A stretch of DNA of 64,000 nt. Source: Candidatus Dojkabacteria bacterium (GTDB lineage: Bacteria; Patescibacteriota; Dojkabacteria; B142; WJKM01). Made by a program: the position numbers and the translations under genes. Location: contig WJKM01000011.1 in assembly GCA_014729085.1 (NCBI GenBank), positions 170,852 through 234,851 on the forward strand. Direction: 5' to 3'. The stretch's first letter is position 1; every line of letters begins with the position of its first letter. Under the pieces are notes generated by a model. That model was not told the DNA's origin. It ran no database searches and saw nothing but the letters and a program-made list of their open reading frames with translations. Below are positions 2,112 through 51,603 of this stretch, one piece after another.

Positions 2112-2217
2112 CTTCCCCAATAGAACCTCCAAATTAAATTCAGAATTTCTTTTAAAATACTAGAAATTCTTACTATAAGCTGATATAATCGGGATATATT
2201 TTTTTACTTGCATAATT

Positions 2218-2370
2218 ATGGAACAAGAAAGATTTAGAGATTACTTACCTTTTTTATTGATAAGTGCATTAGCTTTAGGAGGTCTAACAGCCTGTGGAAA
2301 TGAGACAAATGTAGTCCCAGATCCTACCGAATCACCCATTCCTGATCCAGATCCTACAGCTACTTCTACT
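2218..2370 (+). repeat. ~150-nt 5' gene module (signal peptide plus start of linker) duplicated at 3478-3630
   Basis: Direct comparison of the two gene starts: identical except for about 3 nt (attacttacc vs atcacatgcc). The sequences diverge completely right after ...gatcctacagctact. Confidence 0.8.
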
Positions 2371-3384
2371 CCTGTACCTACAGCTACCGCAACACCCTTG
2401 CCTGTCTCTGAACCTACATCAACTCCAGGCACAGAATTAAATTCCGACGAAAGATGCAGTATTTCCTTTAATAATGTCGGTTTAGATGCAGACTATACCG
2501 AATGGACAGGAGCGACTACATTGAATGGAGAATTTGCAGACACACAGATGCGCATAGGGCTTGAGAACCATGCCGGTTGGGAATTGTCTTTTGCAGAAGA
2601 TAACTTTGAGGATGTAGTTACTCAAGTTATAAACTCCTGCGGGATGGATATAGACGCAAGAGAAGACAGTCGTTATCCTTTAATAATGAATTTTATCGAT
2701 TACAACGAATATGGAGGAAAGGCCATCTGGCCTGAATTAACTACCGACGAGGAAGGCAACCCAACATTAGAACATGATAGGTTGGCTGTCAGCTTACCTT
2801 ATGTGTATATAGATATTTTACCAAGTATCTTACAAATGAGGCATTATGACTATGAGGAAGGTTCTTATACAGATGCCGTTCACGACTGGCTTATTAATCA
2901 GGGTTTTTCAGAAAATGACCTTCTTCAAGGAGATCTCGATGATCTCTTCGATATGGTGATATCAAAAATAGCATTAGAAGAGACTATAGAACTTCCTTTA
3001 TTAAATCAACAAATACCTCTTCTTGAAGACACATATAATACAGACATTACTGACGTACAAAGTTTAGCAACCACGATTGGACAGCACGAGGATACAGCAT
3101 ATCCTGAAACAGGATTTACGCTTCCAGCTGAACAACCTGATGAATTAAATTACTGGATAGATAATTATTGTGACCATTTAAGTTTACCTATAACCTCAGC
3201 ATATGTAGAAGCTATGACAGAAGGAGTAAGTTTACCTTTCTTAATACATGACTTTGATAAAGATACCATGCTTGCAGTTCTTAGGAATTCACAATCATAT
3301 ACACCAGAACAAATAAATACTATAGAAGCATGGTTAAATGCCGAACAAGCAATCCAAGAAACAAGAGTAGATTATTTCGATTAG
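2218..3384 (+). CDS. MEQER-family lipoprotein 1 (acidic secreted protein)
   Basis: Starts MEQERFRDYLPFLLISALALGGLTAC-G, i.e. a signal peptide with a lipobox. A Pro/Thr/Asp-rich linker (PDPTESPIPDPDPTATSTPVPTATATP) is followed by an acidic domain. The first ~50 aa are near-identical to the ORF at 3478. Confidence 0.7.
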   Translation: MEQERFRDYLPFLLISALALGGLTACGNETNVVPDPTESPIPDPDPTATSTPVPTATATPLPVSEPTSTPGTELNSDERCSISFNNVGLDADYTEWTGATTLNGEFADTQMRIGLENHAGWELSFAEDNFEDVVTQVINSCGMDIDAREDSRYPLIMNFIDYNEYGGKAIWPELTTDEEGNPTLEHDRLAVSLPYVYIDILPSILQMRHYDYEEGSYTDAVHDWLINQGFSENDLLQGDLDDLFDMVISKIALEETIELPLLNQQIPLLEDTYNTDITDVQSLATTIGQHEDTAYPETGFTLPAEQPDELNYWIDNYCDHLSLPITSAYVEAMTEGVSLPFLIHDFDKDTMLAVLRNSQSYTPEQINTIEAWLNAEQAIQETRVDYFD

Positions 3385-3477
3385 TCAATAGGAGTACTTA
3401 TCTAACCTATCAGATTTATAAAATCAAATAATCAGATAAATATAATATTTTTAAATCACTTTTTTACATTATTCTTC

Positions 3478-3630
3478 ATGGAACAAGAAAGATTTAGAGA
3501 TCACATGCCTTTTTTATTGATAAGTGCATTAGCTTTAGGAGGTCTAACAGCCTGTGGAAATGAGACAAATGTAGTCCCAGATCCTACCGAATCACCCATT
3601 CCTGATCCAGATCCTACAGCTACTGCTCTA
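3478..3630 (+). repeat. second copy of the duplicated 5' lipoprotein module (see 2218-2370)
   Basis: Same nucleotide string atggaacaagaaagatttagagat...cctgatccagatcctacagctact. Confidence 0.8.
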
Positions 3631-4482
3631 CCTGCTCTTACTGCAACACCTGAAGACATATTCACAGATGATGATGGCGATTATGTAAACGATAGTGATG
3701 AGGCTTTTCTTGGAATGACACCAGGTGTACATGATGAAATGATAGATCTTCCTGAAGGTCGATTCCAGTTTCACTTAAGGATTAATGGGGATCAATTTGT
3801 ATATTTTGACGGAGATAATTATGATCCCTATATTCAAATTAATCCAGAGACACTATCTAGCATCTTGTCTGATCTAGAAAACCCCGATTTTGGTGATAAA
3901 ATAACCCCTCAATTTGACTTTAGCTCTCAAATTTGGAACCAATACCTAGGCGCTAATCCTGAGCTTCAAAATACGGGTATACCTAATGCCTTTAATTTCA
4001 GGCCTGAAGATTACAACGAAAGAGTAATTTATATGAATCAAGACTTTTTCCATGACTTGTTCCCGCTTCAATTCCTTTACGATGATAAAAGTTACGATCC
4101 AGTAGAAGGGCTGAGAATCAGACAGACACTAGATTCTTTAGGAGTCGTAGACGATGACTACTCAAACTATTCCTATGAACAATTGGTGGAGGCGGGAACC
4201 ACAGCAATATTTTCTGAAGAAATATTTGAATGTACATCCGGTGACTACCCAAGTTTCACTTCACAAGAAGATGCTGATGCTCATTCACTAGATTTTAAAA
4301 GGCGAGTTTTTAGAGACGTTTTAGAAGGTCGTATCGAGCCTTTATTTGATACTACAACGATTGAAATGTTTGACCCAGCGTATATCAGAACCCAAATAGA
4401 AAGCTGGCCTTGGTTTCGAGATGATATGATCCAACAAACAGAACAATATTTTGATGAGGAATTTCCAGAATGGAGAAATTAG
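3478..4482 (+). CDS. MEQER-family lipoprotein 2
   Basis: MEQERFRDHMPFLLISALALGGLTAC-G lipoprotein signal. The N-terminus is shared with lipoprotein 1, followed by an unrelated acidic body of 334 aa. Confidence 0.7.
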   Translation: MEQERFRDHMPFLLISALALGGLTACGNETNVVPDPTESPIPDPDPTATALPALTATPEDIFTDDDGDYVNDSDEAFLGMTPGVHDEMIDLPEGRFQFHLRINGDQFVYFDGDNYDPYIQINPETLSSILSDLENPDFGDKITPQFDFSSQIWNQYLGANPELQNTGIPNAFNFRPEDYNERVIYMNQDFFHDLFPLQFLYDDKSYDPVEGLRIRQTLDSLGVVDDDYSNYSYEQLVEAGTTAIFSEEIFECTSGDYPSFTSQEDADAHSLDFKRRVFRDVLEGRIEPLFDTTTIEMFDPAYIRTQIESWPWFRDDMIQQTEQYFDEEFPEWRN

Positions 4483-4592
4483 TCCCTATTGATAACTATT
4501 ATATTTTTAATCATGTTATATCTTATCTATTGAAAAATTAAAGAGAAGCCTGATATGATCACGACATACTTTATTATCTTATAATATTTAAA

Positions 4593-5624
4593 ATGGAACA
4601 AGAACGATTAATAAATTATTTGCCTCTTCTCTTAATAGGACTGGGAACGGCCGCTTGTACAGGTGGATTTGGTCAGGAAGAAATTCCAACTCAAACACCA
4701 ATATCCGATCCTGACGATAATCCCTTACCTCCTGATGGAACTCCAACATCTCCGGGAATACAAGCCGGAGAAGTAAGTGGTGGAGAGACCATAGAAATGC
4801 CAATACAAACTTTAGTAGATAATGACGAAGATTTAGTTGCAAGTATATATGATATCGATGACAACAATCCACTGGTAGGTATGCAATGTTCAGCAGAAGT
4901 ACATTCTGAAGGAAGAACTTATCAAAATGGTAACCCCAATCTACCAATAGATTTACATGAATTAGTTATAGACTGTCCAGGTAACCAAGATTGGGAACTA
5001 CAATTTCAGCAATTCGTAGGTGCGCAACCAAGAAATAATTGGTTCACAGCAGAAATAGGTGGGCCAGATCATGATAGATCCGATATATTTCTATGGGATT
5101 CCCCTTCCCATTTAGATTATAATTGTGCCACTCTAGCGCTAGATAGGACTTTCCCAAACCTTCCATTACCGATAACAGAACAAGGGGGTCTAGGAGGAAT
5201 ATTAACTACAAATAATACTTATGAACTACTTGATATGTTGATAGGAGATCCAGACGCTGGATTGGAGAGAGGTGCGGGTTTAGGATATTTAAAAGAAGAT
5301 GGTTATATTGATGGACTAGAATTTGATAGGCTAGTTGAAGAAGGAAATGTTGATCAAATTTATGATCTTATCGACTCTGATGATCTTATATTCATTGTTA
5401 CACGGGATGTTGGAAACTTTGATACATCCGAAGATGGGTATCATATGGCGGTTCCAGCCTTATATCCAAACACGGGGCAAGAAACTTTTTATCAGAAATT
5501 CAGTATTGAAAGTCCTACTGGTTATGGTGGACCGGAAGCTATAAAAAATCATTATGATAATACAGGAAAGGATATTGTTGGGTTTTACATAATTCAACCT
5601 ACAGCACAATTCTCAACACCCTAA
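4593..5624 (+). CDS. MEQER-family lipoprotein 3
   Basis: MEQERLINYLPLLLIGLGTAAC-TGG lipobox, a Pro/Asp-rich linker and an acidic domain; 343 aa. Confidence 0.65.
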   Translation: MEQERLINYLPLLLIGLGTAACTGGFGQEEIPTQTPISDPDDNPLPPDGTPTSPGIQAGEVSGGETIEMPIQTLVDNDEDLVASIYDIDDNNPLVGMQCSAEVHSEGRTYQNGNPNLPIDLHELVIDCPGNQDWELQFQQFVGAQPRNNWFTAEIGGPDHDRSDIFLWDSPSHLDYNCATLALDRTFPNLPLPITEQGGLGGILTTNNTYELLDMLIGDPDAGLERGAGLGYLKEDGYIDGLEFDRLVEEGNVDQIYDLIDSDDLIFIVTRDVGNFDTSEDGYHMAVPALYPNTGQETFYQKFSIESPTGYGGPEAIKNHYDNTGKDIVGFYIIQPTAQFSTP

Positions 5625-5885
5625 TGACAATTATACAAAATAGCAAGAGTAAGTAAATAAGTTTTTTCTCTTGCTATGATTTGTATATTGATTCAACTTT
5701 TCTCTCGTTGACGTTTTCTATATTCTCTGGAGATTCTAACTTACAATCCCAACCCTATTACTAGTATTCTACGCCTTCCTCTTCTAAAAATTGCTAATAT
5801 CCCCTCCCCTCCTCTATAATAAAATCGAGAATATGAAGCCAATGGCTTTAAAACAAATCCTACTTATTTACTATTTACTTGCTGT

Positions 5886-8168
5886 ATGGGACGAAGAAGA
5901 CGTAGAAGAAAAATCACATACGACAGCAGGGAAAGCAAGATCGTACTTGGTCTTATTTCTCTTCTTTTTGCAGTTATCTGTGTACTCAGTAATTTTACTG
6001 ATGGGGTTGCATTCGAACTTGCATTGAAACTATTTGGGGGAGCAGTCTATCCAGTTGCAGGATTTTTTCTAGTATTGGCTCTCAAACTTTTCCAAATTAA
6101 ACCAGATAGAATTACCACACGCTCTGTAATAGGGATGTTAATAATTTCTATTTCTTGGGCTATCTTTTTATCTGGCAAAACAGGGCTGCCTGTGGATGTC
6201 AAAAACTTAGCCTATCAGGGTCAATACGGAGGAATTGTTGGTTTCGAACTTGCAGAAAAAATAAGTACTTTTCTTTTTCGTGATGCTATTAGACCTCTGA
6301 TGATTTTCATAATCTTCTTTTCTGTTCCTCTAGTTCTTTCAATGAGATTAGGAGAGTATCTGGATATGATTGGAAGTGTATTTGGTTGGATTTTTAAACA
6401 ATTGAATAAACTTAAAGAGGCTGTGGCTAAAACTCAAAATATAAACCCTGAAAAACAAGAATCCGTCACCCACGAAAATCAGACTGAACCTACTATGGTT
6501 GGAGATTTTCTCTCTTCACAAAAGTATTCTGAGAGAAAACAGGAGGAGCAAGACAAAAATGAGGAAAGTGTGGCTAACAAAGGACCCGAATTCGAGGGTG
6601 TAGCAGACGACGAGAAAACAGAGAAAAGTGTAAAGAATCCTAAAATAAAATACAAAAAGTCTGAAGAAAACGAAGACCTACTCCTCCACGACGAATTACA
6701 GTTTCCAGATTGGGAACTTCCTCCTCTTGATCTTTTAAAAAGAGACGGAAAAAGAAAATCAATTAAATCAGACATTGAGAAAAATTCCAAAATTATTGAG
6801 CAAACGCTTAAAAGTTTCAATGTCAAAGCACAAGTTGTTGATGTTTCGGTTGGGCCTTCAGTTACACAATATGCCTTGAACATTGCTTTAGGAACAAAAG
6901 TTTCAAAAATTGCAAACCTAAAAAATGACCTTGCTCTTGCATTGGCAACCTCATCTAATGCAGTTCGAATAGAAGCACCTATCCCAGGAACCAGCTTTGT
7001 CGGTATTGAAGTTCCTAATAAAAAGAGACAGATGATTCTCTTTGGGGACTCAGTAGGTGAGAAAGAGATGGAAAAAGGCAGACTGACAGTTACGCTTGGA
7101 GAAGATGTTGGCGGTAAAAAAATCTTTATCGATATTCAGAAAATGCCTCATCTTCTTATTGCGGGAGCAACAGGTTCTGGTAAATCAGTTGTGACCAATT
7201 CATTCATAATGTCTATGCTTATGAAAAAGACGCCGGATGAAGTCCGAATGATACTCGTTGACCCAAAACAAGTTGAATTTTCCGACTATAATGGCATTCC
7301 TCATCTACTCACACCAGTTATCACAAATATGAACAAGGTGAACAATGCACTAAAATGGGCTATTGTGGAAATGGAAAACCGCTACACTGAATTTAAGGAA
7401 AATAAAGTTAGAAATATAGAAATGTACAATGAAAAATTAGGCTTCTCTGCCCTTCCCTATATCGTAATTGTAATAGATGAGATGGCTGATATGATGATGG
7501 GTCAAGCTGGCGCTGAGATCGAATCTTCTATTGTTAAACTTGCCCAGAAGGCAAGAGCAACAGGCATTCATTTAATCTTAGCCACCCAGAGACCTTCTGT
7601 TGATGTTATAACCGGACTTATAAAAGCAAATATTCCTGGACGCTTAGGTTTAAGCGTAACTACACAAATAGATTCCCGGGTTATTCTCGATCAAATTGGA
7701 GCTGAGTCTCTTCTCGGTCGTGGTGATCTGCTTTACAAAGATCCCGGGAAAAATAGACTTGAGAGAATTCAGGGAACTTTTATTTCTCAAGATGAAGTTT
7801 TAAGAGTCGTGAACTTTATAAAACGACAAACACCTGATGAGGTTGAATACACAGAAGAAATTACACAAAAGCAGGTACCCCCGGATGCACCTCCAGGTAC
7901 TGCAGAATCAATTAAATTTTCTGATGATGAACTGTTTGCAAAAGGAGCAAGAATTATCGTTAATGCTCGAAAGGGCTCTTCTTCCCTACTCCAACGCAAA
8001 CTCAGCATCGGGTATAATCGTGCAGCTAGGCTTATAGATGAATACCACAAATACGGTATTGTAGGCCCTTCCAAGGGAAGTAAACCAAGAGATATTTTAA
8101 TAACTGATATCGAGGCCTTTTTGCAAGGCGGTGGCCAAGCTGAAGACCCAAGTTCCGCTGAAGATTGA
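5886..8168 (+). CDS. ftsK: DNA translocase FtsK/SpoIIIE
   Basis: N-terminal TM helices, an acidic linker, a motor domain with Walker A GATGSGKS and Walker B VIVIDEMADMM, and a C-terminal gamma winged-helix (LLQRKLSIGYNRAARLIDEYHKYGIVGP). Confidence 0.9.
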   Translation: MGRRRRRRKITYDSRESKIVLGLISLLFAVICVLSNFTDGVAFELALKLFGGAVYPVAGFFLVLALKLFQIKPDRITTRSVIGMLIISISWAIFLSGKTGLPVDVKNLAYQGQYGGIVGFELAEKISTFLFRDAIRPLMIFIIFFSVPLVLSMRLGEYLDMIGSVFGWIFKQLNKLKEAVAKTQNINPEKQESVTHENQTEPTMVGDFLSSQKYSERKQEEQDKNEESVANKGPEFEGVADDEKTEKSVKNPKIKYKKSEENEDLLLHDELQFPDWELPPLDLLKRDGKRKSIKSDIEKNSKIIEQTLKSFNVKAQVVDVSVGPSVTQYALNIALGTKVSKIANLKNDLALALATSSNAVRIEAPIPGTSFVGIEVPNKKRQMILFGDSVGEKEMEKGRLTVTLGEDVGGKKIFIDIQKMPHLLIAGATGSGKSVVTNSFIMSMLMKKTPDEVRMILVDPKQVEFSDYNGIPHLLTPVITNMNKVNNALKWAIVEMENRYTEFKENKVRNIEMYNEKLGFSALPYIVIVIDEMADMMMGQAGAEIESSIVKLAQKARATGIHLILATQRPSVDVITGLIKANIPGRLGLSVTTQIDSRVILDQIGAESLLGRGDLLYKDPGKNRLERIQGTFISQDEVLRVVNFIKRQTPDEVEYTEEITQKQVPPDAPPGTAESIKFSDDELFAKGARIIVNARKGSSSLLQRKLSIGYNRAARLIDEYHKYGIVGPSKGSKPRDILITDIEAFLQGGGQAEDPSSAED

Positions 8169-8313
8169 TTTGTTTCTTATAAGATATTGAAAACAAATTC
8201 CCAATTTAGATTTATATCCCCCCTTTAACCTTTACACATAAGACTTATCACAAACATTGACTAAAATTATATAGGTATATATAATTCATAATAATATATT
8301 AAAATTTTTTCTT

Positions 8314-9168
8314 ATGGAACAGGAAAGATTTGGATGGTCTCCAGCTCTATTTATAATTGGTGCCACGCTAATGGGAGCGGGAGCTTGTAAGGCGGCGACT
8401 GAGGAACCAAACAGCTTGACCACAGTGATGCCTGAAAACCCAATTGATTCAGACCAAGACGGGTTTTCAGATGAAACAGAAAATCTTTTAGGAACAGACC
8501 CACATACAGCAAATACCATAACCTACGAGCAACCCGAAGGAGTTTTTAGTCCGACGGAAAACAGGACTTCCCCGAAATATCCCGAACTTGATTTGCTTAC
8601 TGCGTTCAAATTACAGAGTATGAATCCCGAACTTTATGAAGGATTAGACCGTAGTGAGTTTTATGATGAACACTTCAGCTCTGGTTATGAAATCATACAG
8701 GAAGGAAACTACATGACAAACTGTTTTGCTGATGTCCTAGGTATAGATAGAGGCTGGATACATGACAAAATTTTCAGACAAGCCCTTGCTGATCCGGATT
8801 CAGGACTATACGAGGAAGGAACTGCTTTAATACCAACAGAAACAGAATATTCTGAATTATTTTATTCAAGCTTGGAACTTGACCCCTTCTATACAGTCGA
8901 ACTTATGTTGTCAGAAGCTCAAGACGGAGACATACTGGTGTTTAGAGGTGTTGAAGGCATAGATTGGGATAGTGACGATGAGATAGATGGCTTTCAATTT
9001 GGTAGCTTTCCCCATGCGGCCGAAATCGATGTTGACCCAGAGGATGGCACCATTTCTTTTATAAACAAAATAGGGGAACTTGATTATGTTAGATCATACG
9101 ATATACATGAGCTAGCTAACCTTTTTGATGCACCAATAGTAAGTTTATACAGACACAAAGACGAATAA
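8314..9168 (+). CDS. MEQER-family lipoprotein 4 with a TSP3-like Ca-binding motif
   Basis: MEQERFGWSPALFIIGATLMGAGAC-K lipobox, then DSDQDGFSDETENLLGTDPHTANT (DxDxDGxxDxxE...GTDP). Confidence 0.65.
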   Translation: MEQERFGWSPALFIIGATLMGAGACKAATEEPNSLTTVMPENPIDSDQDGFSDETENLLGTDPHTANTITYEQPEGVFSPTENRTSPKYPELDLLTAFKLQSMNPELYEGLDRSEFYDEHFSSGYEIIQEGNYMTNCFADVLGIDRGWIHDKIFRQALADPDSGLYEEGTALIPTETEYSELFYSSLELDPFYTVELMLSEAQDGDILVFRGVEGIDWDSDDEIDGFQFGSFPHAAEIDVDPEDGTISFINKIGELDYVRSYDIHELANLFDAPIVSLYRHKDE

Positions 9169-9538
9169 AATACAAATCCTACAAATACAGGAAGTATATA
9201 GAAATCTATCCTCCCCCAGACCCCTCCCCTTTTAGGCGATGGATGAATACAGATTTTCTTCTTCGAAGAATTCTGCATTTAAACCGTGGATTCTTGTCTT
9301 CCGAGGACTACTTTGGTCGAAGGAAAAATTACTCTACAGTATTTCATTTGTAAATATTCTATACAACAGAATAAATTTACTTTTACAGCTAACAATATTT
9401 CCTCATCACCAATTTATTGGAATTCTTTCGCTTTAAATTCATTTTTTATTTTAAAAGTGCAACAAAAGTCAGACTTATCTCGTCTGAAAGGCACATATAT
9501 CCCAGATATATGTTACCTTATTTGTTATTTATTTACTT

Positions 9539-10858
9539 ATGGAACAAGAAAGCAAGGTTAAAGCTGGTGCTGGTCTTTTAGCATTAGGACTCCTAACAGC
9601 TCTAGGCGCTACAGGATGCGGAGGTAGTCCAGAAGCAGGTGGGTTTACTGAAGATAACCCAAATGATGATAATCCAACTATTTCACTTACTCAGGTTCCT
9701 GGTACAATACCAGAACCTCGAGATGACGATTTCATCGGACCTGTAGCAACTACGCCAGCTCCTGGAAACCTTCCATTCTACCCAGACTATGATGGTAATG
9801 GTTGGATTCACGTTAATGAAAATAGACAGGAATTTATGAATATGTTCGGAAATTATCTGCTTACACTTGGATTGCCCCCTGAAGATGCGATGGACATAAT
9901 GCAAAGTCTGAAAAGTTACGATCTCGACAATAATGATAGAGCTGATATTCTGGACATTTTTTATGATGAAAATAATCAATTCATACAACACGCAAATGCT
10001 TCGGAATTAATTGCTCCCTATAAAAATTTCGATGGAGATTTATATATTGATGGACATGATCCAGACGATGATGGAGATTTGATTCCGGATGACCAAGAAA
10101 TAGGTTCTCCATACGCTTGGGATACAGATAACGATGGTGCAGGAGATTACTTAGAAGCTAATACTGGAACTGATCCTAATGACCCAGAAAGCTATAATCC
10201 AGTTTATATAAACATGCCTTCTGAACTCAACTTATCTTCTTTTGAAATATTTACCTCTAACGTAGAGAATCCAGGAGAAGCGGATGTAATTTTTTTCCCA
10301 TTCCGACATGGAGATCAGCGAACTGCAAGAACTGCAGGAATGGAAACTGAACGTGAAATATCCCAGGATTTTCTAGAGACATATCATGGGCTTTATCCTG
10401 ATAAACCCTTAGTATTTTTGTTAGAAGGTATTCCTAGAGGTGAAGTTGTTCCTCCATCTAATAGAGATAGATTAACATTTAATTATCAGGCAGATGAAGA
10501 TACAGCTATAACTGCTGGGTGGGATGATAGGATTAGTAATGAAATGACTTTTCAAGTATTAGAGGAAAAAGCTGAATTACTTAACCCTTTATGGGAAGAA
10601 GGCTATGGAATCCTAGAAACAGAAGAAAGTACAGGTTCTCCCATCGTAGGAAGGTGGGTAGAGCTTAATCAAACTGAAGATTCACTTTCTGAAACAAGAA
10701 ATCAAAGCCTAGCAGATACTATCCAAGATTATATTGATCAAGGTTATACTGTTGTTGTAACAGCTGGTGAACTTCACTACACCGATGATGATGCACAGGT
10801 TGTAAGAGATTACGTTGAAAGCCAAAATCATATCGTATTTCATCAAAAAGATGAATAA
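9539..10858 (+). CDS. MEQER-family lipoprotein 5 with TSP3-like acidic repeats
   Basis: MEQESKVKAGAGLLALGLLTALGATGC-GG lipobox, then DPDDDGDLIPDDQE and DTDNDGAGDYLEANTGTDPNDPESYNP motifs; 439 aa. Confidence 0.65.
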   Translation: MEQESKVKAGAGLLALGLLTALGATGCGGSPEAGGFTEDNPNDDNPTISLTQVPGTIPEPRDDDFIGPVATTPAPGNLPFYPDYDGNGWIHVNENRQEFMNMFGNYLLTLGLPPEDAMDIMQSLKSYDLDNNDRADILDIFYDENNQFIQHANASELIAPYKNFDGDLYIDGHDPDDDGDLIPDDQEIGSPYAWDTDNDGAGDYLEANTGTDPNDPESYNPVYINMPSELNLSSFEIFTSNVENPGEADVIFFPFRHGDQRTARTAGMETEREISQDFLETYHGLYPDKPLVFLLEGIPRGEVVPPSNRDRLTFNYQADEDTAITAGWDDRISNEMTFQVLEEKAELLNPLWEEGYGILETEESTGSPIVGRWVELNQTEDSLSETRNQSLADTIQDYIDQGYTVVVTAGELHYTDDDAQVVRDYVESQNHIVFHQKDE

Positions 10859-10890
10859 CAAAAACTAACAAGCGGAATTTTGTGGGGGGG

Positions 10891-12435
10891 TCACTCTCCA
10901 CCCCCAGCTGGGGGTAGTGGATCGTAATTGCTTGGTACAAAGCTTGATTTGGATTGAGGTGTCTTTTTATTTTGTTGAACCGTTTCTACAACTTCCTCTT
11001 TAGTCTCTTCTTCTTTTGATTTGGCCGTGTCCTTTTCTTCTTGCTCATCATCTTCTTTTGTGGTTATCTTCTCTTCAGTTTCTTTTTCTTCTTCTTTAAC
11101 TTTTGGTTCTATCATTTTGGTTACATATTTCATATCATCTTCGGTGACATCTTTTTCTTCATCGCTTTGTTGCTCTTTATCAGCTACAACTGTTTCGACC
11201 TGTTGAGTCTCTTTAATCGCTGTATCTTTTTCTACAACCTCAGCTTCTTCAGGCAACTCCCTATCCTTCGAGATAGCTGGAATCTTTTCCTTCTCAGATT
11301 TGATTACTTCTTTTTCTTGTTCAGTCTCCTTTTGTGTCTCTATTTCTCCTTCCGGCTCCATTTCCATTTTTTTAAAAAATTTTTCAAAAATAGCCCCTGC
11401 TCTTTGCTTCGACCAAAAATACACATAGTTCTTATCCCCAAGTCTATAAAATTCCTTAGTTAACTCCAACGCAGAATATTTATTGGATGAAACCTGCATA
11501 AATCCATGAATATTATCTTCCAACTTAACCATTACTACTGCAACATCGCATTCCTTGATCTTGGCAATTGGTATACGATCTTCATTGCTTAAGCTCCCTA
11601 CCACATCACTGGTAATATTTTCGTCGTCTACATATGCGAAACAGAAATTATCTTTTACTTTTAAGTTCTGGAAAACAGCGTTAAACCAGTAAACATGCTT
11701 TTTGGTCAATTTTTTATAAATTCTGCTATTTGCTGTATCTATATCTGCCTTGTCCTTATTGACAAGTAAATATAGGTTTTTTACTGTCTGTCTATTAGCG
11801 TTTATCTTTAAATTCTGGGTGTTAAAAAATATTCCAGTAAGTAAATGAGTTGCTTGTTCCTGACTTAGAGGAATATTTAACTGTCTCGAAAACATCTTGA
11901 CTAATTCAGATAACGAGCTGGAAGGAATAATATACTTTGAATCGGTGACAACACCAGAATCATAATAATGAACTAATTTTGTCTCGTCTGTTATTACTGA
12001 TTCTCCGAAGCTTTGTCTAAATTCATTTGAGTTTTCAAGCTGAGAAAACCCCAAAAGCAATATTTGGTCAAATTTAATCTTATCTCTTGAAAAGCTTATA
12101 GCCTGTTTGTTTAAATTTCCTGATTTGGTAGTTATAACCAACTTGAATTCATTTTCAGATTTTTGAATGTCAATATCTTCAATTTCCTTATCTGTTGGCA
12201 ACTTTGCGTAAAACCTTCTACTCTGGACCGAATTAACCATATTCAAACCTTCCGCAGGAAAATTCTTCTCAAACACCTCTTGGTATTTATCTAAGTTTGT
12301 TAAAATAGTTACATCTTTACCAACTTTATCCAATAATTGTGCTAAAACTATTGTGGAAGCTACTGAATCTGGATTTAATTGGTCAGGAGTAACTAAAAGT
12401 ATATTGTTGATATTTTTATCAATTATTTTATTCAT
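10891..12435 (-). CDS. degenerate DHH/DHHA1 (NrnA-like) phosphoesterase-family protein with a long E/K-rich low-complexity C-terminal tail
   Basis: N-terminal LLVTPDQLNPDSVASTIVLAQLLDKVGKDVTIL resembles DHH motifs I/II with the catalytic His substituted. ATHLLTGIFFNTQNL and ...WSKQRAGAIF resemble DHHA1. The last ~130 aa are a KEEEKETEEK-type charged tail. Confidence 0.5.
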   Translation of the reverse strand: MNKIIDKNINNILLVTPDQLNPDSVASTIVLAQLLDKVGKDVTILTNLDKYQEVFEKNFPAEGLNMVNSVQSRRFYAKLPTDKEIEDIDIQKSENEFKLVITTKSGNLNKQAISFSRDKIKFDQILLLGFSQLENSNEFRQSFGESVITDETKLVHYYDSGVVTDSKYIIPSSSLSELVKMFSRQLNIPLSQEQATHLLTGIFFNTQNLKINANRQTVKNLYLLVNKDKADIDTANSRIYKKLTKKHVYWFNAVFQNLKVKDNFCFAYVDDENITSDVVGSLSNEDRIPIAKIKECDVAVVMVKLEDNIHGFMQVSSNKYSALELTKEFYRLGDKNYVYFWSKQRAGAIFEKFFKKMEMEPEGEIETQKETEQEKEVIKSEKEKIPAISKDRELPEEAEVVEKDTAIKETQQVETVVADKEQQSDEEKDVTEDDMKYVTKMIEPKVKEEEKETEEKITTKEDDEQEEKDTAKSKEEETKEEVVETVQQNKKTPQSKSSFVPSNYDPLPPAGGGE

Positions 12436-15226: not shown

Positions 15227-15853
15227 ATGGAAATAATTTCAAGAGATACCCAAGAGAAAGTTAATTGGGGGAATACAGCTAAGAACCTATTAGCCTTAGC
15301 TGGTGGTCTTGGTCTAGCAGGCCTTGCAATAGACGGCCTTGACGGACACATTGATACAGTGGATATAACAAACTTTAGACACTACAAAGACACCGATGGC
15401 GATGGACTTTCCGATGAATTAGAAAACCAACTCGGAACTGATTTTCTAGATCCTGATACCAATAACGATGGGTTAACTGACTGGCAGAACTTAAATGATG
15501 GTGGAAATCCTTTTAACTACTATAAAGATGAAGTAAAGAATGAATTATCAGATGAAGATATGGATAATCTACCTAATATGGATGGAGATGATGACTGGGA
15601 TGGTATTGACGAGGATGTCGATGGAGACTTAATTGTTAACACACTTGAACTTCAAGATTGGGGAGAAGGTATGATGCTAGGAACAGATCCACTTAATCCA
15701 GATACCGATGGTGATGGATTAACTGACGGAGAGGAAGTTGAACCAGTAAATATAGAAGGTGGCTTATATACAGGTGTGAGACCTTATGATATGGATGGAG
15801 ATGCAGTAATCGGTCCAAGAGACCCAGGTGAACAAGAAAATCATAATCCTTAA
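15227..15853 (+). CDS. acidic Ca-binding repeat protein (thrombospondin type 3-like DxDxDG repeats)
   Basis: Hydrophobic N-terminal segment (LLALAGGLGLAGLAI), then repeated DTDGDGLSDELENQLGTDFLDPDTNNDGLTD ... GTDPLNPDTDGDGLTDGEE motifs. Confidence 0.55.
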   Translation: MEIISRDTQEKVNWGNTAKNLLALAGGLGLAGLAIDGLDGHIDTVDITNFRHYKDTDGDGLSDELENQLGTDFLDPDTNNDGLTDWQNLNDGGNPFNYYKDEVKNELSDEDMDNLPNMDGDDDWDGIDEDVDGDLIVNTLELQDWGEGMMLGTDPLNPDTDGDGLTDGEEVEPVNIEGGLYTGVRPYDMDGDAVIGPRDPGEQENHNP

Positions 15854-30564: not shown

Positions 30565-31671
30565 ATGAAACCCTTCATTAACTTTCTATCAATCCTTCTT
30601 TTCAGTTTAGTTTTGATATTAAGTGCAGGAGGCTTGATTGTAGTTGCCACAGCATCACTTCTCGCTCAAAGCGATAATAATTATATTTCAGCCAACTCTC
30701 AAGATGAATCATTACTTTTGTCTGATGATGATGAAGAAAATCTAGAAGTAATTCATAATACTTTTGAAGTTTACGACGTAAAAATTAATGAATATAAAGA
30801 GGCTGGTATGATGAAAATATACAACGCTTCAGACAGTCTGAGAGAAATATACATCCACTTTAGACCTAAATCACCAGAAGATAAGAAAACAGCTTCCAAT
30901 TTTATATTCCGTGTTTATCGAGGGGAGGCTACTTATCTTGATGAAAACAATTATAGAGTAACTAGAAATAATAACTTTTCAAAACCAATATATGAGGGTA
31001 CTTTGGACAAAATCGGAAATGATCTTTTCGACGTTATCGAAAAAGAAGGAGAGGTTGAATACATATTTGAAGTGACTCTGAAAGATAGTTTTAAAGAAAA
31101 TAAAAAAAACGATGTGAGTTTTTCTCTGGAAATTGAAGGGGTGACTATTGAAGATAAAGATAAAGAGAAAAAAGAACCTATCCTTGATATCTCTTCATCG
31201 AATTGGTCTGATCTTAATTCTTATCATAATGTAAGCGAAGAAAGGCTTCCAGTAGTTCAAACATTCAAACCTCATATAGAAGGACAACTGTCTTACATTG
31301 AGATTTGTACTGTAAGGAATGTATCAATCGAAATTTATGAAGGCGAGGCTCTTGAAGAAGAAATACAAAATTTAAAAATAAAATATATAAGTAAATCCAT
31401 AGAAACAGAAGACACCGGAGAAATCTGCAGTGATTACGAAAATTTTACAAAAAAGAAAATTTATTTTGACCAATCGACCATTTTAGACACCGAAGAAGAT
31501 CAAGAAGGAAATTTTACAAAAATATACACACTCAGGTTCGTACCGGAAAATGATATATATTCAATTGCATTCCCACCTAAATCGGAATATACCGAAGGAA
31601 GATTAAGCCTAAGTGATTCCTGGGAAAACGAACTTGACGTTGCATTTAATACATGGATGATAGAAAAGTAA
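30565..31671 (+). CDS. secreted protein with a SipW-cognate (TasA/camelysin-like) signal peptide
   Basis: Hydrophobic N-terminus ending ...ESLLLSDDDEENLEVIHNTFEV, comparable to the TasA-type AFFSD.E.....NTF signature; an acidic beta-rich body. Confidence 0.45.
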   Translation: MKPFINFLSILLFSLVLILSAGGLIVVATASLLAQSDNNYISANSQDESLLLSDDDEENLEVIHNTFEVYDVKINEYKEAGMMKIYNASDSLREIYIHFRPKSPEDKKTASNFIFRVYRGEATYLDENNYRVTRNNNFSKPIYEGTLDKIGNDLFDVIEKEGEVEYIFEVTLKDSFKENKKNDVSFSLEIEGVTIEDKDKEKKEPILDISSSNWSDLNSYHNVSEERLPVVQTFKPHIEGQLSYIEICTVRNVSIEIYEGEALEEEIQNLKIKYISKSIETEDTGEICSDYENFTKKKIYFDQSTILDTEEDQEGNFTKIYTLRFVPENDIYSIAFPPKSEYTEGRLSLSDSWENELDVAFNTWMIEK

Positions 31672-31722
31672 TATCAATATTTTAGTTATACTGTCCAAAT
31701 TTATTTTTTATTTTATATATAG

Positions 31723-33363
31723 ATGAGAAAAAACAGATTAACAGCATCAACCCTGCTGCTAGGAGCTTTGATACTCTTTGCTACTGCTAGCATGGTTGTT
31801 CTTGCTACAATTCTCGCAACAAGTACAGGTAACACCGTTACCGCTACTGCCACCGAAGGTTTTCTTCTAACAGATGATGACGAAACAATGCAATCTGAGA
31901 TAGAAGGAACTTTTAATTTACAAAACCTCGGTTCTGATTACGTAGAGGCTGCTACCATAGGTGTCTTAAACGCTTCAAGTACTCAGGAAGATCTTGATCT
32001 TCTAGTTCACTTTCTAGGCAATGATGATGATTCAGAAGGAACCGATAGAGCAACAGCTGCATACTTTGATGTCAGAATTTCTAAATTAAATGAAGAAGGA
32101 AACCCTGATCCAAATTTTGGAGATCAAGATGGAACAGCCGATGGATACTATATTACAACTCTTGATAAATTATCTGGAGAAAATAATGATGTAGTCTTTG
32201 ACCATGTTCCTTTTGGAGCTCAATACGAATACGTTTTCGAGATGAAAACTGATCATATGTTCCTACCTGGTGAGAAAAATAATGTCAACTTCTCTTTACA
32301 ATTTGAGAGTGTTGAGAATATGACAGGTGAATGGCAGTATGTAGGTAATACAGATTTTAGCAACAGCAATGTCTGGGATCTTTCTATTGAGACTAATATG
32401 CAAACCGATGAGACTTATGTAGCTTTTGTTGAAACAGATAATGGAAGCAAGGCAAGTGTTATGAAGTTTAATGGCACATCTTGGAAATACGTCGGTTCAC
32501 CAGCTTTTACACCAGACAGAGCTAACGAACTAAACCTTGCAATTAATCCAGTAAATGGAGATCTATATGTTGCATTTGGTGATAATTCCAACGGCCATAA
32601 AGCAAGCGTTATGAAGTTTAATGGGTCTACTTGGGAATATGTAGGGACTCCAGGGTTTAGTAATGGATATGGGTGGTATATTAACATTGATATCAATCCA
32701 ACTACTGGAGAACCATATGTAGCCTACTTTGACTACAACTCAACAAATAAAGTCATTGTTGAAAAATTTAATGGTACAACATGGGAAAACCTTCCTGATC
32801 CAGGAGTTAGCAGCCATGCAGAATTTTCTATCAATCCATATACAAGTGAACCTTACTTAGTTTACGCTACAAGTTCAGGCAAGCTTGAAGTGAAAAAATT
32901 TGATGGTTCAAACTGGAGCACTGTAGGAAATTCCGAATTTGGTTTTTCAAGTCCTCGTGATATAAATCCTGTTAAATTCAGCCCAACAACACATCAGCCT
33001 TATGTTGCTTTCTTACATGTAACAAGCTGGGTTCCTATTGAATATAAGCCAGTAGTAATGACATTAAATGACTCAACCTGGGAATATGTATGTTCAGATC
33101 CATCTACATGTGATCCTCATATTACCAGTGGATACGGAGACAATGTACATTTTGAGATGAGCTTATCAGGAAAACCAACTATTTCATATAGGGGCTCAAA
33201 TAGTCTAAGTGTGAAATATTTTGATGGTGAAAATTGGGAATTTTTAGGTGAACCAAACTTTGTTAGTGGATTTCATAATGATCTTTCAATTAACTCAAGA
33301 GGTGAGGTTCATGTTGCACAAGCAGATATGACAGATAAAGTATCGGTTCTTGCCTATAAATAG
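31723..33363 (+). CDS. secreted TasA/camelysin-like protein with ~45-aa tandem beta repeats
   Basis: Signal peptide ...TEGFLLTDDDETMQSEIEGTFNL (SipW-type signature). Five or more repeats of the form (K/E)KFNG(S/T)xWE(Y/N)(V/L)GxPxF, e.g. KASVMKFNGTSWKYVGSPAFT and KASVMKFNGSTWEYVGTPGFS. Confidence 0.5.
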   Translation: MRKNRLTASTLLLGALILFATASMVVLATILATSTGNTVTATATEGFLLTDDDETMQSEIEGTFNLQNLGSDYVEAATIGVLNASSTQEDLDLLVHFLGNDDDSEGTDRATAAYFDVRISKLNEEGNPDPNFGDQDGTADGYYITTLDKLSGENNDVVFDHVPFGAQYEYVFEMKTDHMFLPGEKNNVNFSLQFESVENMTGEWQYVGNTDFSNSNVWDLSIETNMQTDETYVAFVETDNGSKASVMKFNGTSWKYVGSPAFTPDRANELNLAINPVNGDLYVAFGDNSNGHKASVMKFNGSTWEYVGTPGFSNGYGWYINIDINPTTGEPYVAYFDYNSTNKVIVEKFNGTTWENLPDPGVSSHAEFSINPYTSEPYLVYATSSGKLEVKKFDGSNWSTVGNSEFGFSSPRDINPVKFSPTTHQPYVAFLHVTSWVPIEYKPVVMTLNDSTWEYVCSDPSTCDPHITSGYGDNVHFEMSLSGKPTISYRGSNSLSVKYFDGENWEFLGEPNFVSGFHNDLSINSRGEVHVAQADMTDKVSVLAYK

Positions 33364-33414
33364 GATCTTTGTGATCTAAACACTTAAGAAAGCCCTGTAT
33401 TCCAATACAGGGCT

Positions 33415-35199
33415 TTATCTTTTCCGTAGTATTCTTGAAACACCCCCAATGAAAATCACAACAAATAGAACAAAAAGACTTAACACCATTATCTGTGATG
33501 TATTCTCAAGATCCAATCCATATTGTAAAGAAACAACTCCAGCTTTTAGTCTATTTTTCATTTGATCAAACATAACTTCAGCCGTTTCCTTTTCTTTTTT
33601 AGGATATTTTTTCATAAACTGTTTGATAGATGTCAATTGACTTTTTTTCTTATCCATCTTAGCAACAGTTTGAATTTCAAATTTTGGAGGGTCTAGTTCT
33701 TGATTTGCCCCATAGGCATATCTCGATATTAAAGAAGGTTCATTAGGATTTTTATACGCAGTATGGCTATAGAAATGATTCAAATCTCCTCCTATTATGA
33801 TCTCTCCTGATTCACCCCAAGTAACATCTACGTCTATCCACTCATCAACTCCGGGCATATAAACCTGTACCCATTGATGCGGTTCTTGTTTATCACTTGA
33901 CATCCTGGAATCATATCCATAACCAAACACAGCCCGGGCTGGTATATTACTTGCGCGAGCAAGACTGATAAAAAGATCTGAATATTCCATACATACTGCA
34001 GAACCTCCAAGAAGAGTTTTTAAAGCTCCTTGCCTCTCATTTAAACCAAACCTTTTAACTTCATCATAGTCTATAGTATCAACAATATATTCATATATAT
34101 TTTTTACAATTTGAAATGTATTGTCTGAATCCTTTTTGAGTTTTTCAGCTTTAACTTGAATTGGTTCGCTATTAACTTCCCAATATTCTGCAGGTTTAGT
34201 ATATTTTTGTACCAATCCATCTTCTATGTCACCTAGAGAACCAACTTCTTTTTCGAAATCAAACTCCTCAGTTTTTTCAATATATGCATAGCCGTCAATA
34301 ATAATCTCATGATTTTCATTTGATAAAAATTCAAATTCGGCAAATAAATTTCCTTCTTCATCTTCAAAGATGGCTGTTGGCTCCGGATCGATGCTACTTA
34401 AAAAAACCTCCTGTTTTATTTCTCCTACTGAAAAATCTTTAGGTATTACCAATTCAAATCTATTTTTCAAACCTGTTAATTTTTCTTCTGTAGCATCTGC
34501 ATATTGAGTAATTTTAAAATCATAGATCTGATAAGTTCCAAGTTGTAGCCAGATATATGCATCTACCAAAGACTCCTGATCAAAACTGTAAAGAGTATAA
34601 TCTAATGCTCTCTCTGTGTTTTTTGGCTCTGGATTAATAAAATTAACCTCTTTATCAATAGAAGAGGGGATTATTAATTTTGTGGAGTAAATCATCTTTG
34701 TATTTGAGGTCTCAAACTCAAAGTTTTTCTCAAAGCCATGGATGTAAACATCAATCAATGCCCCATTTTGATAAACCAACGAAGGATGTGTATACTCTAA
34801 CGTAAACTCTCGACTTTCTCCGAAATAAAGATCTCTTCCATAAGGAAAACTTATCTTTGCAATACTATCTTCAATCTTGCTGTTAAAATCTTTTGCTTCG
34901 CCATTCTCGGTTACTTTTACCGTTTCAAGAGCTTCTTCTAAAATTTTCAGTGTATTGGGATCATCTATCCGGAAGGCTAGTATTGAAAAATCTACTGTCT
35001 CTTCCCCAGGAATATATAGTTTCTCTAAATTATTCCTTATAGACTGTTTTTCTGTAACTTTCATTTCTAAATCATCTGTGACTTCATATGTCCTTTCTAT
35101 GTTCACTCTAATTTTTGCTGAGGTGCTTGTTATACTAAGAAAGAGGAACAAGGGAATAAAAGCAAGTATTTTTTGTAATTGAAAACATTGTTTTTTCAT
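33415..35199 (-). CDS. transglutaminase-like exported protein
   Basis: Signal peptide; transglutaminase-like core with the Cys in GGSAVCMEYSDLFISLARASNIPARAVFGYGY, and His/Asp in EPHQWVQVYMPGVDEWIDVDVTWG; C-terminal TM helix plus RKR tail. Confidence 0.7.
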   Translation of the reverse strand: MKKQCFQLQKILAFIPLFLFLSITSTSAKIRVNIERTYEVTDDLEMKVTEKQSIRNNLEKLYIPGEETVDFSILAFRIDDPNTLKILEEALETVKVTENGEAKDFNSKIEDSIAKISFPYGRDLYFGESREFTLEYTHPSLVYQNGALIDVYIHGFEKNFEFETSNTKMIYSTKLIIPSSIDKEVNFINPEPKNTERALDYTLYSFDQESLVDAYIWLQLGTYQIYDFKITQYADATEEKLTGLKNRFELVIPKDFSVGEIKQEVFLSSIDPEPTAIFEDEEGNLFAEFEFLSNENHEIIIDGYAYIEKTEEFDFEKEVGSLGDIEDGLVQKYTKPAEYWEVNSEPIQVKAEKLKKDSDNTFQIVKNIYEYIVDTIDYDEVKRFGLNERQGALKTLLGGSAVCMEYSDLFISLARASNIPARAVFGYGYDSRMSSDKQEPHQWVQVYMPGVDEWIDVDVTWGESGEIIIGGDLNHFYSHTAYKNPNEPSLISRYAYGANQELDPPKFEIQTVAKMDKKKSQLTSIKQFMKKYPKKEKETAEVMFDQMKNRLKAGVVSLQYGLDLENTSQIMVLSLFVLFVVIFIGGVSRILRKR

Positions 35200-41190: not shown

Positions 41191-42318
41191 TTATTCCAGC
41201 CTCATAGGCATTATGATATGAAGATAGTCCTTATCCTTCTTATCTTTAAACACCCCAGGAGAAGTGGCTCCTGTTGTTTCATAGATTATTTCTTCCCCTT
41301 CCATAGCAGTTATCATATCTTGCAAAAAACGTGCATTATATGCCGTTTCAAGGTCATCTCCTTCTACCTTTGCTATATCCACAAATGTCTCGTTCTTTCC
41401 AATGTCTACAACTAAAACTTTCATCAGAAGTTTTGCCTTTTCTGCATTTACTGCAAATTTTGTTTTGTTTCCCACAACATTACGTGCAAATATGCTTACT
41501 ACTTTAAGTGCTTCGGATAATTCTGCTTTTAATACCGAGAAACTGAAATCTTTCTTTTCGGGTAATATATCCTCAAAAGATGGAAACTCCCCTTCTATTA
41601 GCCTACTAACAAGCTCGATATCATCTATTTTAAAAACTACTTGATTATTATCCTTTAATTTATAAATTTCTACTTCGTCTTTTTCTCCAGCGACATCCTT
41701 GATTATTTTATTAATCTCCATTAAAGACTTTGCAGGAATAATCTCAAGAAAATCTTTTTCCGGGCCGTCTTTTATTTTCATAATTTTTCTCGAAAGTCTA
41801 TAACCATCAACTCCAACCATGGTTAATTTTCTCTTGGTAATTTTTGTTAGTAGACCGGTAAGGACAGGCCTTGAGTTATCTGTTGATGCAGAGAATGTTG
41901 TTTTATCAAGAGCTTTGGAAAATTCAAGTGCATTTATTTTCACTAAGGGCTTTCCTTTTGCTTCGGGAACAGAAGGGAAGTCATCTGCAGGAATTATAAA
42001 GAATTCTGCGCTATTATCCGTAGATTCAACGACTAATTTTTGTCCCTCTAAATAAATATTTAACTTACCTGGTTTAATTGTTCCAATGAATTCTGAAAGA
42101 AGTTTTGCCGAAACTGTAACTTTTCCTTTTTTCTGAATATTTGCCCCAATAGTAGCATTTATACCAATCTCTAAATTTGTACTTGAAAGTTTTATACTGT
42201 CTTTGTCTGCTTCAATATATACATTTGCAAGAACCGGGATATTTGGGGTTGTACTTATTGCTTTATTTATGTGAATTAATGCCTTAGCGAATTTTTTTTG
42301 GATAACTTCAATTTTCAT
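41191..42318 (-). CDS. dnaN: DNA polymerase III beta sliding clamp
   Basis: 375 aa with the three-domain clamp layout, beginning MKIEVIQKKFAKALIHINKAIS; immediately downstream of dnaA. Confidence 0.9.
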   Translation of the reverse strand: MKIEVIQKKFAKALIHINKAISTTPNIPVLANVYIEADKDSIKLSSTNLEIGINATIGANIQKKGKVTVSAKLLSEFIGTIKPGKLNIYLEGQKLVVESTDNSAEFFIIPADDFPSVPEAKGKPLVKINALEFSKALDKTTFSASTDNSRPVLTGLLTKITKRKLTMVGVDGYRLSRKIMKIKDGPEKDFLEIIPAKSLMEINKIIKDVAGEKDEVEIYKLKDNNQVVFKIDDIELVSRLIEGEFPSFEDILPEKKDFSFSVLKAELSEALKVVSIFARNVVGNKTKFAVNAEKAKLLMKVLVVDIGKNETFVDIAKVEGDDLETAYNARFLQDMITAMEGEEIIYETTGATSPGVFKDKKDKDYLHIIMPMRLE

Positions 42319-42482
42319 ATTTTTCTATTATTAAATTAATTTTTAAGATAGTAGTTTAAGTAGTAAGTGTAGATATGTGGAAAACTACATTTTTCTCATT
42401 AATTATAGCGTGTTTGGGAAATAAAAAGTATGTGAATAACTCGGGATAATCTTACGAGTTTATTTCCCTATTTGAATTCTAT

Positions 42483-51563: not shown

Positions 51564-51603
51564 ATGCAGGAGATATATTATTAACAAAAGCTTAAAAAAT
51601 ACT

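Follow-up and report, generated by a model that had tools for sequence, protein, structure and literature searches.

Five putative lipoproteins around ftsK in a Dojkabacteria genome share a signal-peptide module but not their acidic mature domains

How can five neighbouring genes open with the same few codons, encode what look like the same kind of exported protein, and yet differ in almost everything that follows? The question arises at a locus around ftsK in a 64-kb stretch of DNA (34% GC; the whole stretch is called the window here) from a metagenome-assembled genome (MAG) of Candidatus Dojkabacteria (WS6), an uncultured, ultrasmall lineage of the candidate phyla radiation (CPR; Patescibacteria). 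CPR bacteria attach to other cells; little is known of the proteins on their surface. Five open reading frames (ORFs) on the + strand, named here by their first position as g2218, g3478, g4593, g8314 and g9539, start with MEQER or MEQES, each at the first possible start codon past an in-frame stop. Three of them lie between dnaG and ftsK and two between ftsK and a convergent gene, so that they flank ftsK as a first-pass annotation, made from the sequence alone, had described. Our answer is that one signal-peptide cassette has probably been reused on unrelated orphan acidic domains, giving surface lipoproteins that would be exported by Sec and processed by signal peptidase II (SPII).

The ORFs and a six-frame scan of the window agree on the five MEQE(R/S) starts, and the peptide MEQE occurs at these five starts only. 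The first-pass annotation had looked to MEQE starts on cytoplasmic proteins as a sign of mere codon or ribosome-binding-site bias, and the window holds none. The 14-mer ATGGAACAAGAAMG occurs four times in the window where 0.01 occurrences are expected; with up to two mismatches there are seven matches against 1.39 expected, among which the five gene starts score best and the rest are unconvincing. The start string claimed as common to the family is exact in four genes, but g8314 begins with ATGGAACAGGAAAG, which carries a synonymous CAG and is off ATGGAACAAGAAMG by one base. In all five proteins a Pro/Thr/Asp-rich stretch comes after the lipobox Cys, and the mature parts contain 18-22% Asp+Glu and 3-5% Lys+Arg. 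Composition and pairwise comparisons thus agree with the earlier description of a Pro/Asp/Thr-rich linker and a strongly acidic domain that is different in each protein. Four of the genes (GF362_04220, GF362_04225, GF362_04230 and GF362_04245) are hypothetical proteins of Candidatus Dojkabacteria bacterium at NCBI, on a contig of 301,743 bp.

We scored the N-termini with a lipoprotein rule of the PROSITE PS51257 type: no Asp, Glu, Arg or Lys in the six residues before [LIVMFWSTAG]2-[LIVMFYSTAGCQ]-[AGS]-C, the Cys within residues 15-35, and a Lys or Arg in the first seven residues. All five ORFs conform to it, with the Cys at residues 26, 26, 22, 25 and 27 (g2218, g3478, g4593, g8314 and g9539, respectively), which bears out the lipobox Cys proposed earlier for each. 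As the basic residue, four of the proteins have R5, two of these R7 as well, and g9539 has K6. The remaining genuine ORFs of the window all fail the rule, and MEQE and the lipobox coincide there 5/5 in both directions. Across the N-terminal alignment the invariant columns are M1, E2, Q3, E4, a Gly at -4 and the Cys, and the hydrophobic core of the shared module spans 12-17 residues. In lipobox, hydrophobic region (h-region) and Cys position, the five ORFs look like precursors of Sec/SPII lipoproteins.

The residues ahead of the h-region (the n-region) set these signals apart. Net charge is -1 in g2218, g3478, g4593 and g8314 and 0 in g9539, whereas the approximately 11 other signal peptides of the window, which open with MK, MR or MN, have +2 to +6 ahead of the h-region. 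A net positive n-region, typical of lipoprotein precursors though outside the rule, is lacking in all five. The MEQE n-region is a genuine charge outlier relative to the signals of its own genome, and the acidic MEQE start is the sole unusual element of the locus. The first-pass annotation had called it atypical for Sec/lipoprotein signals; that is right for the charge, but each MEQE signal keeps a basic residue (R5, or K6/K8) beside the h-region. Because this residue is retained next to the core, the signals still conform to the rule and the n-region stays inside what Sec signals tolerate. We also considered a twin-arginine translocation (Tat) signal, marked by S/T-R-R-x-F-L-K ahead of the h-region, and rejected it: an RR pair occurs in none of the five, R-F-R in two only, and the g9539 signal has no Arg, so the lack of a twin arginine excludes Tat. 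The YSIRK/GXXS and KxYKxGKxW motifs are absent from the five signals, and no NCBIfam signal domain matched them at E<=10.

How far does the likeness between the genes extend? Ungapped nucleotide identity, anchored at the ATG, was compared for all 10 pairs against a background from other genes. It is 0.87-1.00 over +1..+15 (background 0.51) and lies at background (~0.3) from +46 onward, g2218/g3478 excepted; on the upstream side it is 0.33-0.53 over -30..-1 (background 0.37 +/- 0.08) and at background over -60..-31. Between the mature parts, BLASTP returned E>0.1 except for the g2218/g3478 linker and one loop of thrombospondin type 3 (TSP3)-like sequence. Smith-Waterman scores set against shuffles gave z<=1.0 in all ten pairs, and blastn and tblastn in all frames found no hidden or frameshifted similarity. 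A search for motifs common to the mature parts was not significant at widths 8 and 10, and its result at width 12 was reached by 3 of 100 shuffles. The genes had been called paralogous; this holds for the first 22-27 codons, plus the linker of g2218 and g3478, but in every test applied the mature parts came out as unrelated.

The pair g2218/g3478 contains a mosaic junction. Identity is 0.90-1.00 in each segment compared over +1..+135, the first 135 nucleotides of coding sequence, and the g3478 linker is near-identical to that of g2218 until about codon 49. Identity then falls abruptly, to 0.27-0.47 on the upstream side (from about 20 nucleotides before the ATG) and to 0.38 on the downstream side (after about codon 49-57). 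Gradual divergence cannot produce such a step; recombination is required, either as 5' gene conversion or as 3' replacement.

Only one true homologue of any mature part was found. An exhaustive HMMER search with g9539 recovered P0006, a protein of 541 residues (E 4e-41, 37% identity, g9539 residues 78-433), whose N-terminus is entirely different, with neither MEQE nor a lipobox. The signal module and the mature module therefore exist independently. Taken together, the unrelated mature parts, the bounded 5' block of g2218 and g3478 and the lack of MEQE in P0006 make a shared cassette the best reading of the locus. P0006 is encoded at 10001-11626 of a CPR-like contig (L081; JGI 3300076001, Ga0645781_00033; 720,856 bp, 36% GC), where it has an unrelated N-terminus of 158 residues that lacks a signal peptide. 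The gene immediately upstream (8732-9901) encodes a DDE transposase, and insertion of this element may have reshaped the 5' end of the P0006 gene.

Beyond P0006, the mature domains are orphans. Among 5.8 billion clustered proteins, g2218, g4593 and g9539 matched essentially only themselves or paralogues, plus a low-complexity linker match (P0003); g2218 has no homologue there outside its own genome, and g4593 matched itself only. Pfam, NCBIfam and PHROGs, searched with full proteins and isolated domains, gave nothing above threshold, and PDB sequence and profile searches gave no match to the mature parts. These searches uphold the earlier descriptions of the set as tandem, variable, acidic and poor in motifs, and of its members as not annotatable by motif. 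A TSP3-like Ca2+-binding loop, DxDxDGxxDxxE...GTDP, nevertheless recurs in g8314 and g9539, with a degenerate version in g3478. The regular expression DxDxDGxxD matches g8314 and g9539; their scores with Pfam TSP3_bac (PF18884), 22-24 bits, are below the cut-off of 25. No Pfam match was obtained for g2218, g3478 or g4593; g2218 lacks the loop and g4593 has a weak, loose match only. TSP3-repeat proteins also form most of the weaker matches in the exhaustive g9539 search.

Two fold assignments are tentative leads. Conserved motifs in the C-terminal parts of g9539 and P0006 are F(R/V)HG, LLEG, R(N/D)(Q/E)S and TAG(E/S)(L/A)HY; their order in g9539 (residues 240-439, 10256-10855) and P0006 (residues 340-541) is similar to that in TraB/GumN/Tiki-type domains, unconfirmed by Pfam and PDB sequence searches, which were negative. 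A Cys-helix...(G/D)D(I/L)(L/I)(V/F)(F/I)...H arrangement in g8314 and g4593 recalls NlpC/P60-like papain folds, again unconfirmed (Pfam negative, pairwise z 0.7). AlphaFold2 gave a predicted local distance difference test (pLDDT) score of 37.7 for g8314 (single sequence) and 36.0 for g9539 (two-sequence alignment), low because there is no alignment depth and too poor for fold comparison. At the 3' ends of g8314 and g9539 (9150-9225 and 10840-10915), ...H(K/Q)KDE-TAA is followed by CA.AAAGA.GAATAA..ACAAA and a C-rich TCC.CCCCCAG, which in the g9539 copy overlaps the 3'-terminal part of the convergent gene 10891-12435. The likeness may go back to a tandem duplication that extended into the flank.

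Upstream of the starts, the first-pass annotation had raised a shared promoter or leader. Identity near background across -60..-1 runs counter to this, and only a short T-rich string recurs before the ATG. It had also entertained a translational leader; no shared upstream sequence or RNA structure was found, and the conservation at synonymous sites fits codon bias. No gene of the window has a Shine-Dalgarno sequence. Matches to a sigma-70-like consensus precede three of the genes (Table 1) and are in this region no commoner than expected from shuffled sequence. They are consistent with separate transcription from short leaders.

From these observations we propose the following course of events. 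A 5' module consisting of M-E-Q-E-(R/S), a hydrophobic core and the lipobox Cys, with the Pro/Thr/Asp linker included in g2218 and g3478, would have been joined by duplication and recombination, as 5'-end gene conversion or 3' replacement, to unrelated acidic domains that were fast-evolving or newly acquired, some of them with TSP3-like Ca2+-binding loops. Sec would insert the signal, Lgt would add diacylglycerol to the Cys and LspA would cut before it. The Pro/Thr/Asp tether would then hold the acidic domain off the membrane at the cell surface, which in an episymbiotic CPR cell would be the interface with host and environment. MEQE itself would be an inherited signature of the cassette, kept by purifying selection or repeated 5' conversion, and the acidity of the domains would follow a general acid shift of the organism's exported proteins.

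Might the genes instead be ordinary full-length tandem paralogues, with mature domains that diverged past recognition under diversifying selection and a signal that evolved slowest? Tandem layout, the same architecture of signal, linker and acidic domain and the same composition would all fit. However, a few nucleotides suffice for identity at the g2218/g3478 junction to drop from ~100% to background, the signal is missing from the homologue P0006, and the proteins range from 284 to 439 residues in length; we regard this explanation as unlikely for the set, though one to be kept in mind. A number of points do weigh against our own reading of a reused cassette on surface lipoproteins. Both g8314 and g9539 end in ...H(K/Q)KDE and have a weakly similar 3' flank (a score reached by 10 of 500 shuffles), and a string I-Q-x-T-x-x-(Y/Q)-F lies near the C-terminus of three proteins, although these C-terminal strings are statistically non-significant. 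Given models at pLDDT 36-38, the mature parts may yet share a fold, and for pairs beyond g2218/g3478 full-length paralogy with extreme divergence keeps a minor share of our belief. The SPII call was made with a PS51257-type rule, and E. coli Lpp signal-peptide mutants studied by Inouye and Vlasuk in 1982-83 reportedly showed that an n-region charge of -1 to 0 slows export. Neither lgt nor lspA is present in the 64-kb window, crude regular-expression scans for Lgt/Lsp signatures were negative in all loci fetched for comparison, and the literature on CPR lipoprotein biogenesis yielded nothing usable on Lgt/LspA in this class. Both the surface location and the saline habitat discussed below are matters that we infer. 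The missing Lgt/Lsp signatures and the atypical n-region charge, like the similar hydrophobic segment without Cys in the neighbouring acidic TSP3 protein g15227, would suit N-termini that are not lipoprotein signals but uncleaved anchors or signal peptidase I signals with an incidental Cys, for example in a lineage without Lgt/Lsp. Set against this are a rule-conforming lipobox at the correct distance in 5/5, the Cys and the -4 Gly as sole invariant positions beyond MEQE, the restriction of the lipobox to these among the exported proteins of the window, and the existence of lipobox ORFs with ordinary signals at other Dojkabacteria loci. We find it quite improbable that the signals are of another type.

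The reused cassette leaves a choice as to why MEQE is kept. Conservation of E-Q-E is real, and its cause could be purifying selection on the peptide or homogenisation by 5' conversion. The suggestion of a targeting tag, made in the first-pass annotation, would make MEQE(R/S) a functional n-region sorting tag like YSIRK/GXXS, leading to the septum, a host-contact zone or a dedicated factor. Invariance of the first four residues beside a freely diverged h-region, the charge outlier, the two-way coincidence with the lipobox in the window and the precedent of an n-region motif with a sorting role (PMC5962339) are in its favour. Yet neither a partner nor a pathway gene came to light, the lipobox ORFs of related Dojkabacteria were without the motif, and shared descent with 5' gene conversion, visible in one pair, explains the conservation equally well; with five genes at one locus, the association may be mere family membership. 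A metagenome scan for ATGGAACARGAAMGATTT, which encodes MEQERF, gave at least 120 matches, among those listed none with a lipobox and most of them chance or an unrelated cytoplasmic family. A sorting tag thus seems doubtful, and its boldest form, an undescribed acidic n-region sorting code in a CPR bacterium that would mark lipoproteins for the division site, the host-contact surface or an export route, on a portable cassette by which newly acquired or de novo sequences would become surface proteins, is a long shot. Alternatively, selection might act on RNA, with ATGGAACAAGAAAG as an enhancer of initiation or early elongation, or as a regulatory leader, in a genome without Shine-Dalgarno use. 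Without such sites in the window, start-proximal sequence could matter, 14 of 15 synonymous sites are identical in codons 2-4, and all ten Glu codons are GAA. But codon bias (GAA 74%, CAA 70%, AGA 57%) gives 10/10 GAA with p ~0.05, identity over -30..-1 (0.33-0.53) is close to the background of 0.37, and many other genes likewise open with A-rich codons. Folding energies over -25..+35 (-1.5 to -8.5 kcal/mol) fall within the scatter of other genes (-4.2 +/- 2.2), no structure is common to the five, and there is no Rfam match; an RNA element is very unlikely. Finally, in a genome rich in AT, a bias in codons or start context might produce such starts by chance, given that Glu is the second most common residue at position 2 in the window (8/46 genes) and that MEQERF occurs on unrelated cytoplasmic proteins of other organisms. 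For any one gene, however, E-Q-E at positions 2-4 has a chance of ~2.7e-4, and all five occurrences are on lipobox proteins within 9 kb. With the 14-mer count, the six-frame scan and the lipobox coincidence, this effectively refutes a compositional artefact, which we find hardly credible.

Is the sharing of a leader by unrelated proteins without parallel? The OspE/OspF/Elp (Erp) lipoproteins of Borrelia burgdorferi have a conserved leader peptide, and some of their mature parts are 'completely unrelated' (PMC12018966). They are the closest functional analogue: in both sets a leader is common to the lipoproteins and the mature parts are unrelated, and mosaic recombination is involved. The Borrelia products are surface-exposed, whereas a surface position of the MEQE proteins is predicted. 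In Borrelia an upstream homology box is conserved and the genes are on cp32 prophage plasmids; at the MEQE locus the upstream DNA is unconserved and the setting is a chromosomal dnaG-ftsK block. The MEQE proteins have no sequence similarity to Erp/Elp (no NCBIfam, Pfam or PHROGs match), and their acidic start differs. By analogy, the MEQE locus appears to work like OspE/F/Elp without being a member of that family. The lineage-specific lipoprotein set is real and well delimited, and the principle of sharing a leader is already known from Borrelia.

Other systems resemble the locus in part. Mycoplasmas, which are wall-poor bacteria with reduced genomes that live on host surfaces, have the clustered families Vsp, Vlp, Vsa and Vpma, in which the 5' end and the signal peptide are highly conserved while the mature regions diverge. 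These families have tandem-repeat mature regions, conserved 5' untranslated regions and a phase-variation switch, made of invertible elements or homopolymer tracts. The conserved 5' end is alike in the MEQE locus, but a conserved untranslated region is absent; tandem arrays in the MEQE genes scored no higher than 44, the locus showed no inverted repeats placed so as to bound an invertible segment or a promoter, and runs of T6-7 sit between the -10 element and the ATG, outside the promoter spacer. YSIRK/GXXS is a signal-peptide motif of Gram-positive surface proteins with a demonstrated role in sorting to septal secretion (PMC5962339). Like MEQE it is a short conserved signal-peptide motif on a subset of exported proteins; YSIRK proteins, however, are substrates of signal peptidase I and sortase rather than lipoproteins, and the motif is unlike MEQE in sequence and charge. 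TSP3_bac proteins contain the same Ca2+ loops in acidic surface proteins, but here there is one sub-threshold repeat each, a small accessory motif that does not define the family.

With FtsK as the query, 80 related loci were retrieved. The closest FtsK in species-representative genomes is 62% identical over its full length (76% for a partial match). In seven loci (L001, L002, L006, L010, L015, L016 and L018) dnaG is followed directly by ftsK, and in eight (L001, L002, L006, L008, L009, L011, L015 and L016) ftsK is followed directly by the conserved convergent gene, beyond which the closest relatives (L001, L002 and L031) have a sortase-like gene and a sigma factor. Since the block of dnaG, ftsK and next gene is uninterrupted in relatives, the five genes are additions specific to this lineage, made at two intergenic sites. 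An MEQE-type start is absent from all 80 ftsK loci, and where relatives do have lipobox ORFs, which are few, the n-regions are ordinary, such as MRNLKHYNRALFLALGLLLAAC. In GC content at third codon positions (0.21-0.33) the five genes do not differ from the rest of the window, which argues that they are not recent foreign DNA. At the site downstream of ftsK, another Dojkabacteria MAG has a very acidic ORF of 268 residues (L003, 6409-7215; 16% Asp+Glu, 3% Lys+Arg; MEENQQNQPG...). This ORF suggests that the intergenic position downstream of ftsK repeatedly takes lineage-specific acidic genes.

The first-pass annotation had named the tandem acidic lipoproteins as candidates for a host-interaction or cation-scavenging layer. 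Across the window, exported or N-terminally anchored proteins (for example 30565-35199, 39347-41146 and 49728-57293) have 5-11% Lys+Arg and net charges of -12 to -57, whereas cytoplasmic proteins have 12-20% Lys+Arg and a roughly balanced charge. The MEQE proteins stand at the extreme of an acid trend that runs through the whole secretome. As every exported protein of the window is acid-shifted, the acidity of the family is by itself no evidence for a cation-scavenging role. The acid-shifted secretome probably reflects a saline habitat and adaptation to salt.

Two further elements of the window are exported or anchored and acidic. At 49728-57293 (+), six consecutive genes for exported acidic proteins with classical MK, MN or MR signals and no lipobox form a second surface/secreted cluster. 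At 15227-15853 (+), g15227 encodes 208 residues with 29% Asp+Glu, 3% Lys+Arg and, at the N-terminus, a hydrophobic anchor, MEIISRDTQEKVNWGNTAKNLLALAGGLGLAGLAIDG. It contains four or more DxDxDGxxD loops and scores 37 bits with Pfam TSP3_bac, which exceeds the threshold. The hydrophobic segment is like the one in g9539, though without a Cys; judged by its sequence, g15227 is a candidate for a related surface protein that is anchored and binds Ca. Elsewhere in the window, dnaN and dnaA lie near 41191-43859 (-), at about 42-44 kb, and the cumulative GC skew has its minimum at about 42-43 kb; the window therefore probably contains the replication origin, ~32 kb from the MEQE locus.

Table 1. Positions of the MEQE genes, their parts and associated features in the window (aa, amino acid residues; nt, nucleotides)
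Feature	Position	Strand	Description
g2218	2218-3384	+	388 aa, GF362_04220; signal peptide, linker, orphan acidic domain
g2218 signal peptide	2218-2295 (aa 1-26)	+	MEQERFRDYLPFLLISALALGGLTA, then Cys
g2218 linker	to ~aa 85	+	Pro/Thr/Asp-rich; orphan acidic domain after
5' cassette copy A	2200..2387	+	from ~18 nt upstream of g2218 ATG to ~codon 57; 90% identical to 3460-3647
g3478	3478-4482	+	334 aa, GF362_04225; orphan acidic domain C-terminal
g3478 signal peptide	3478-3555 (aa 1-26)	+	
5' cassette copy B	3460..3647	+	belongs to g3478
Degenerate TSP3-like loop, g3478	3667-3723 (aa 64-82)	+	DDDGDYVNDSDEAFLGMTP
g4593	4593-5624	+	343 aa, GF362_04230; Pro/Asp-rich linker, orphan acidic domain
g4593 signal peptide	4593-4658 (aa 1-22)	+	MEQERLINYLPLLLIGLGTAA, then Cys
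g8314	8314-9168	+	284 aa; orphan acidic domain with HKDE end
g8314 signal peptide	8314-8388 (aa 1-25)	+	MEQERFGWSPALFIIGATLMGAGA, then Cys
TSP3-type loop, g8314	8446-8505 (aa 45-64)	+	TSP3_bac 23.0 bits (cut-off 25)
g9539	9539-10858	+	439 aa, GF362_04245; C-terminal domain with QKDE end
g9539 signal peptide	9539-9619 (aa 1-27)	+	MEQESKVKAGAGLLALGLLTALGATG, then Cys
Asp-rich Ca-loop-like motifs, g9539	aa 128-216 overall	+	further loops at aa 128-187
TSP3-like repeat, g9539	10121-10186 (aa 195-216)	+	22.1-23.9 bits (cut-off 25)
ftsK	5886..8168	+	outside the family; conserved anchor flanked by both insertion sites
Sigma-70-like match	2161..2189	+	TAGAAA-17-TG-TATAAT; ends 29 nt upstream of g2218 ATG; consensus match only
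Sigma-70-like match	4530..4559	+	TTGAAA-18-TG-TATGAT; ends 34 nt upstream of g4593 ATG; consensus match only
Sigma-70-like match	8257..8285	+	TTGACT-17-TATAAT, 11/12 positions; ends 29 nt upstream of g8314 ATG; consensus match only

These findings leave the current understanding of lipoprotein biogenesis unchanged. The locus also points to an acid-shifted secretome, probably an adaptation to salt. If the acidic n-region is functional, it would be a new case of information held in the n-region of a signal peptide; if it has no function, the locus is still a useful marker of recombination of a 5' cassette. The five genes offer a compact, clearly bounded example of a CPR genome building lineage-specific surface proteins inside an otherwise conserved gene block.

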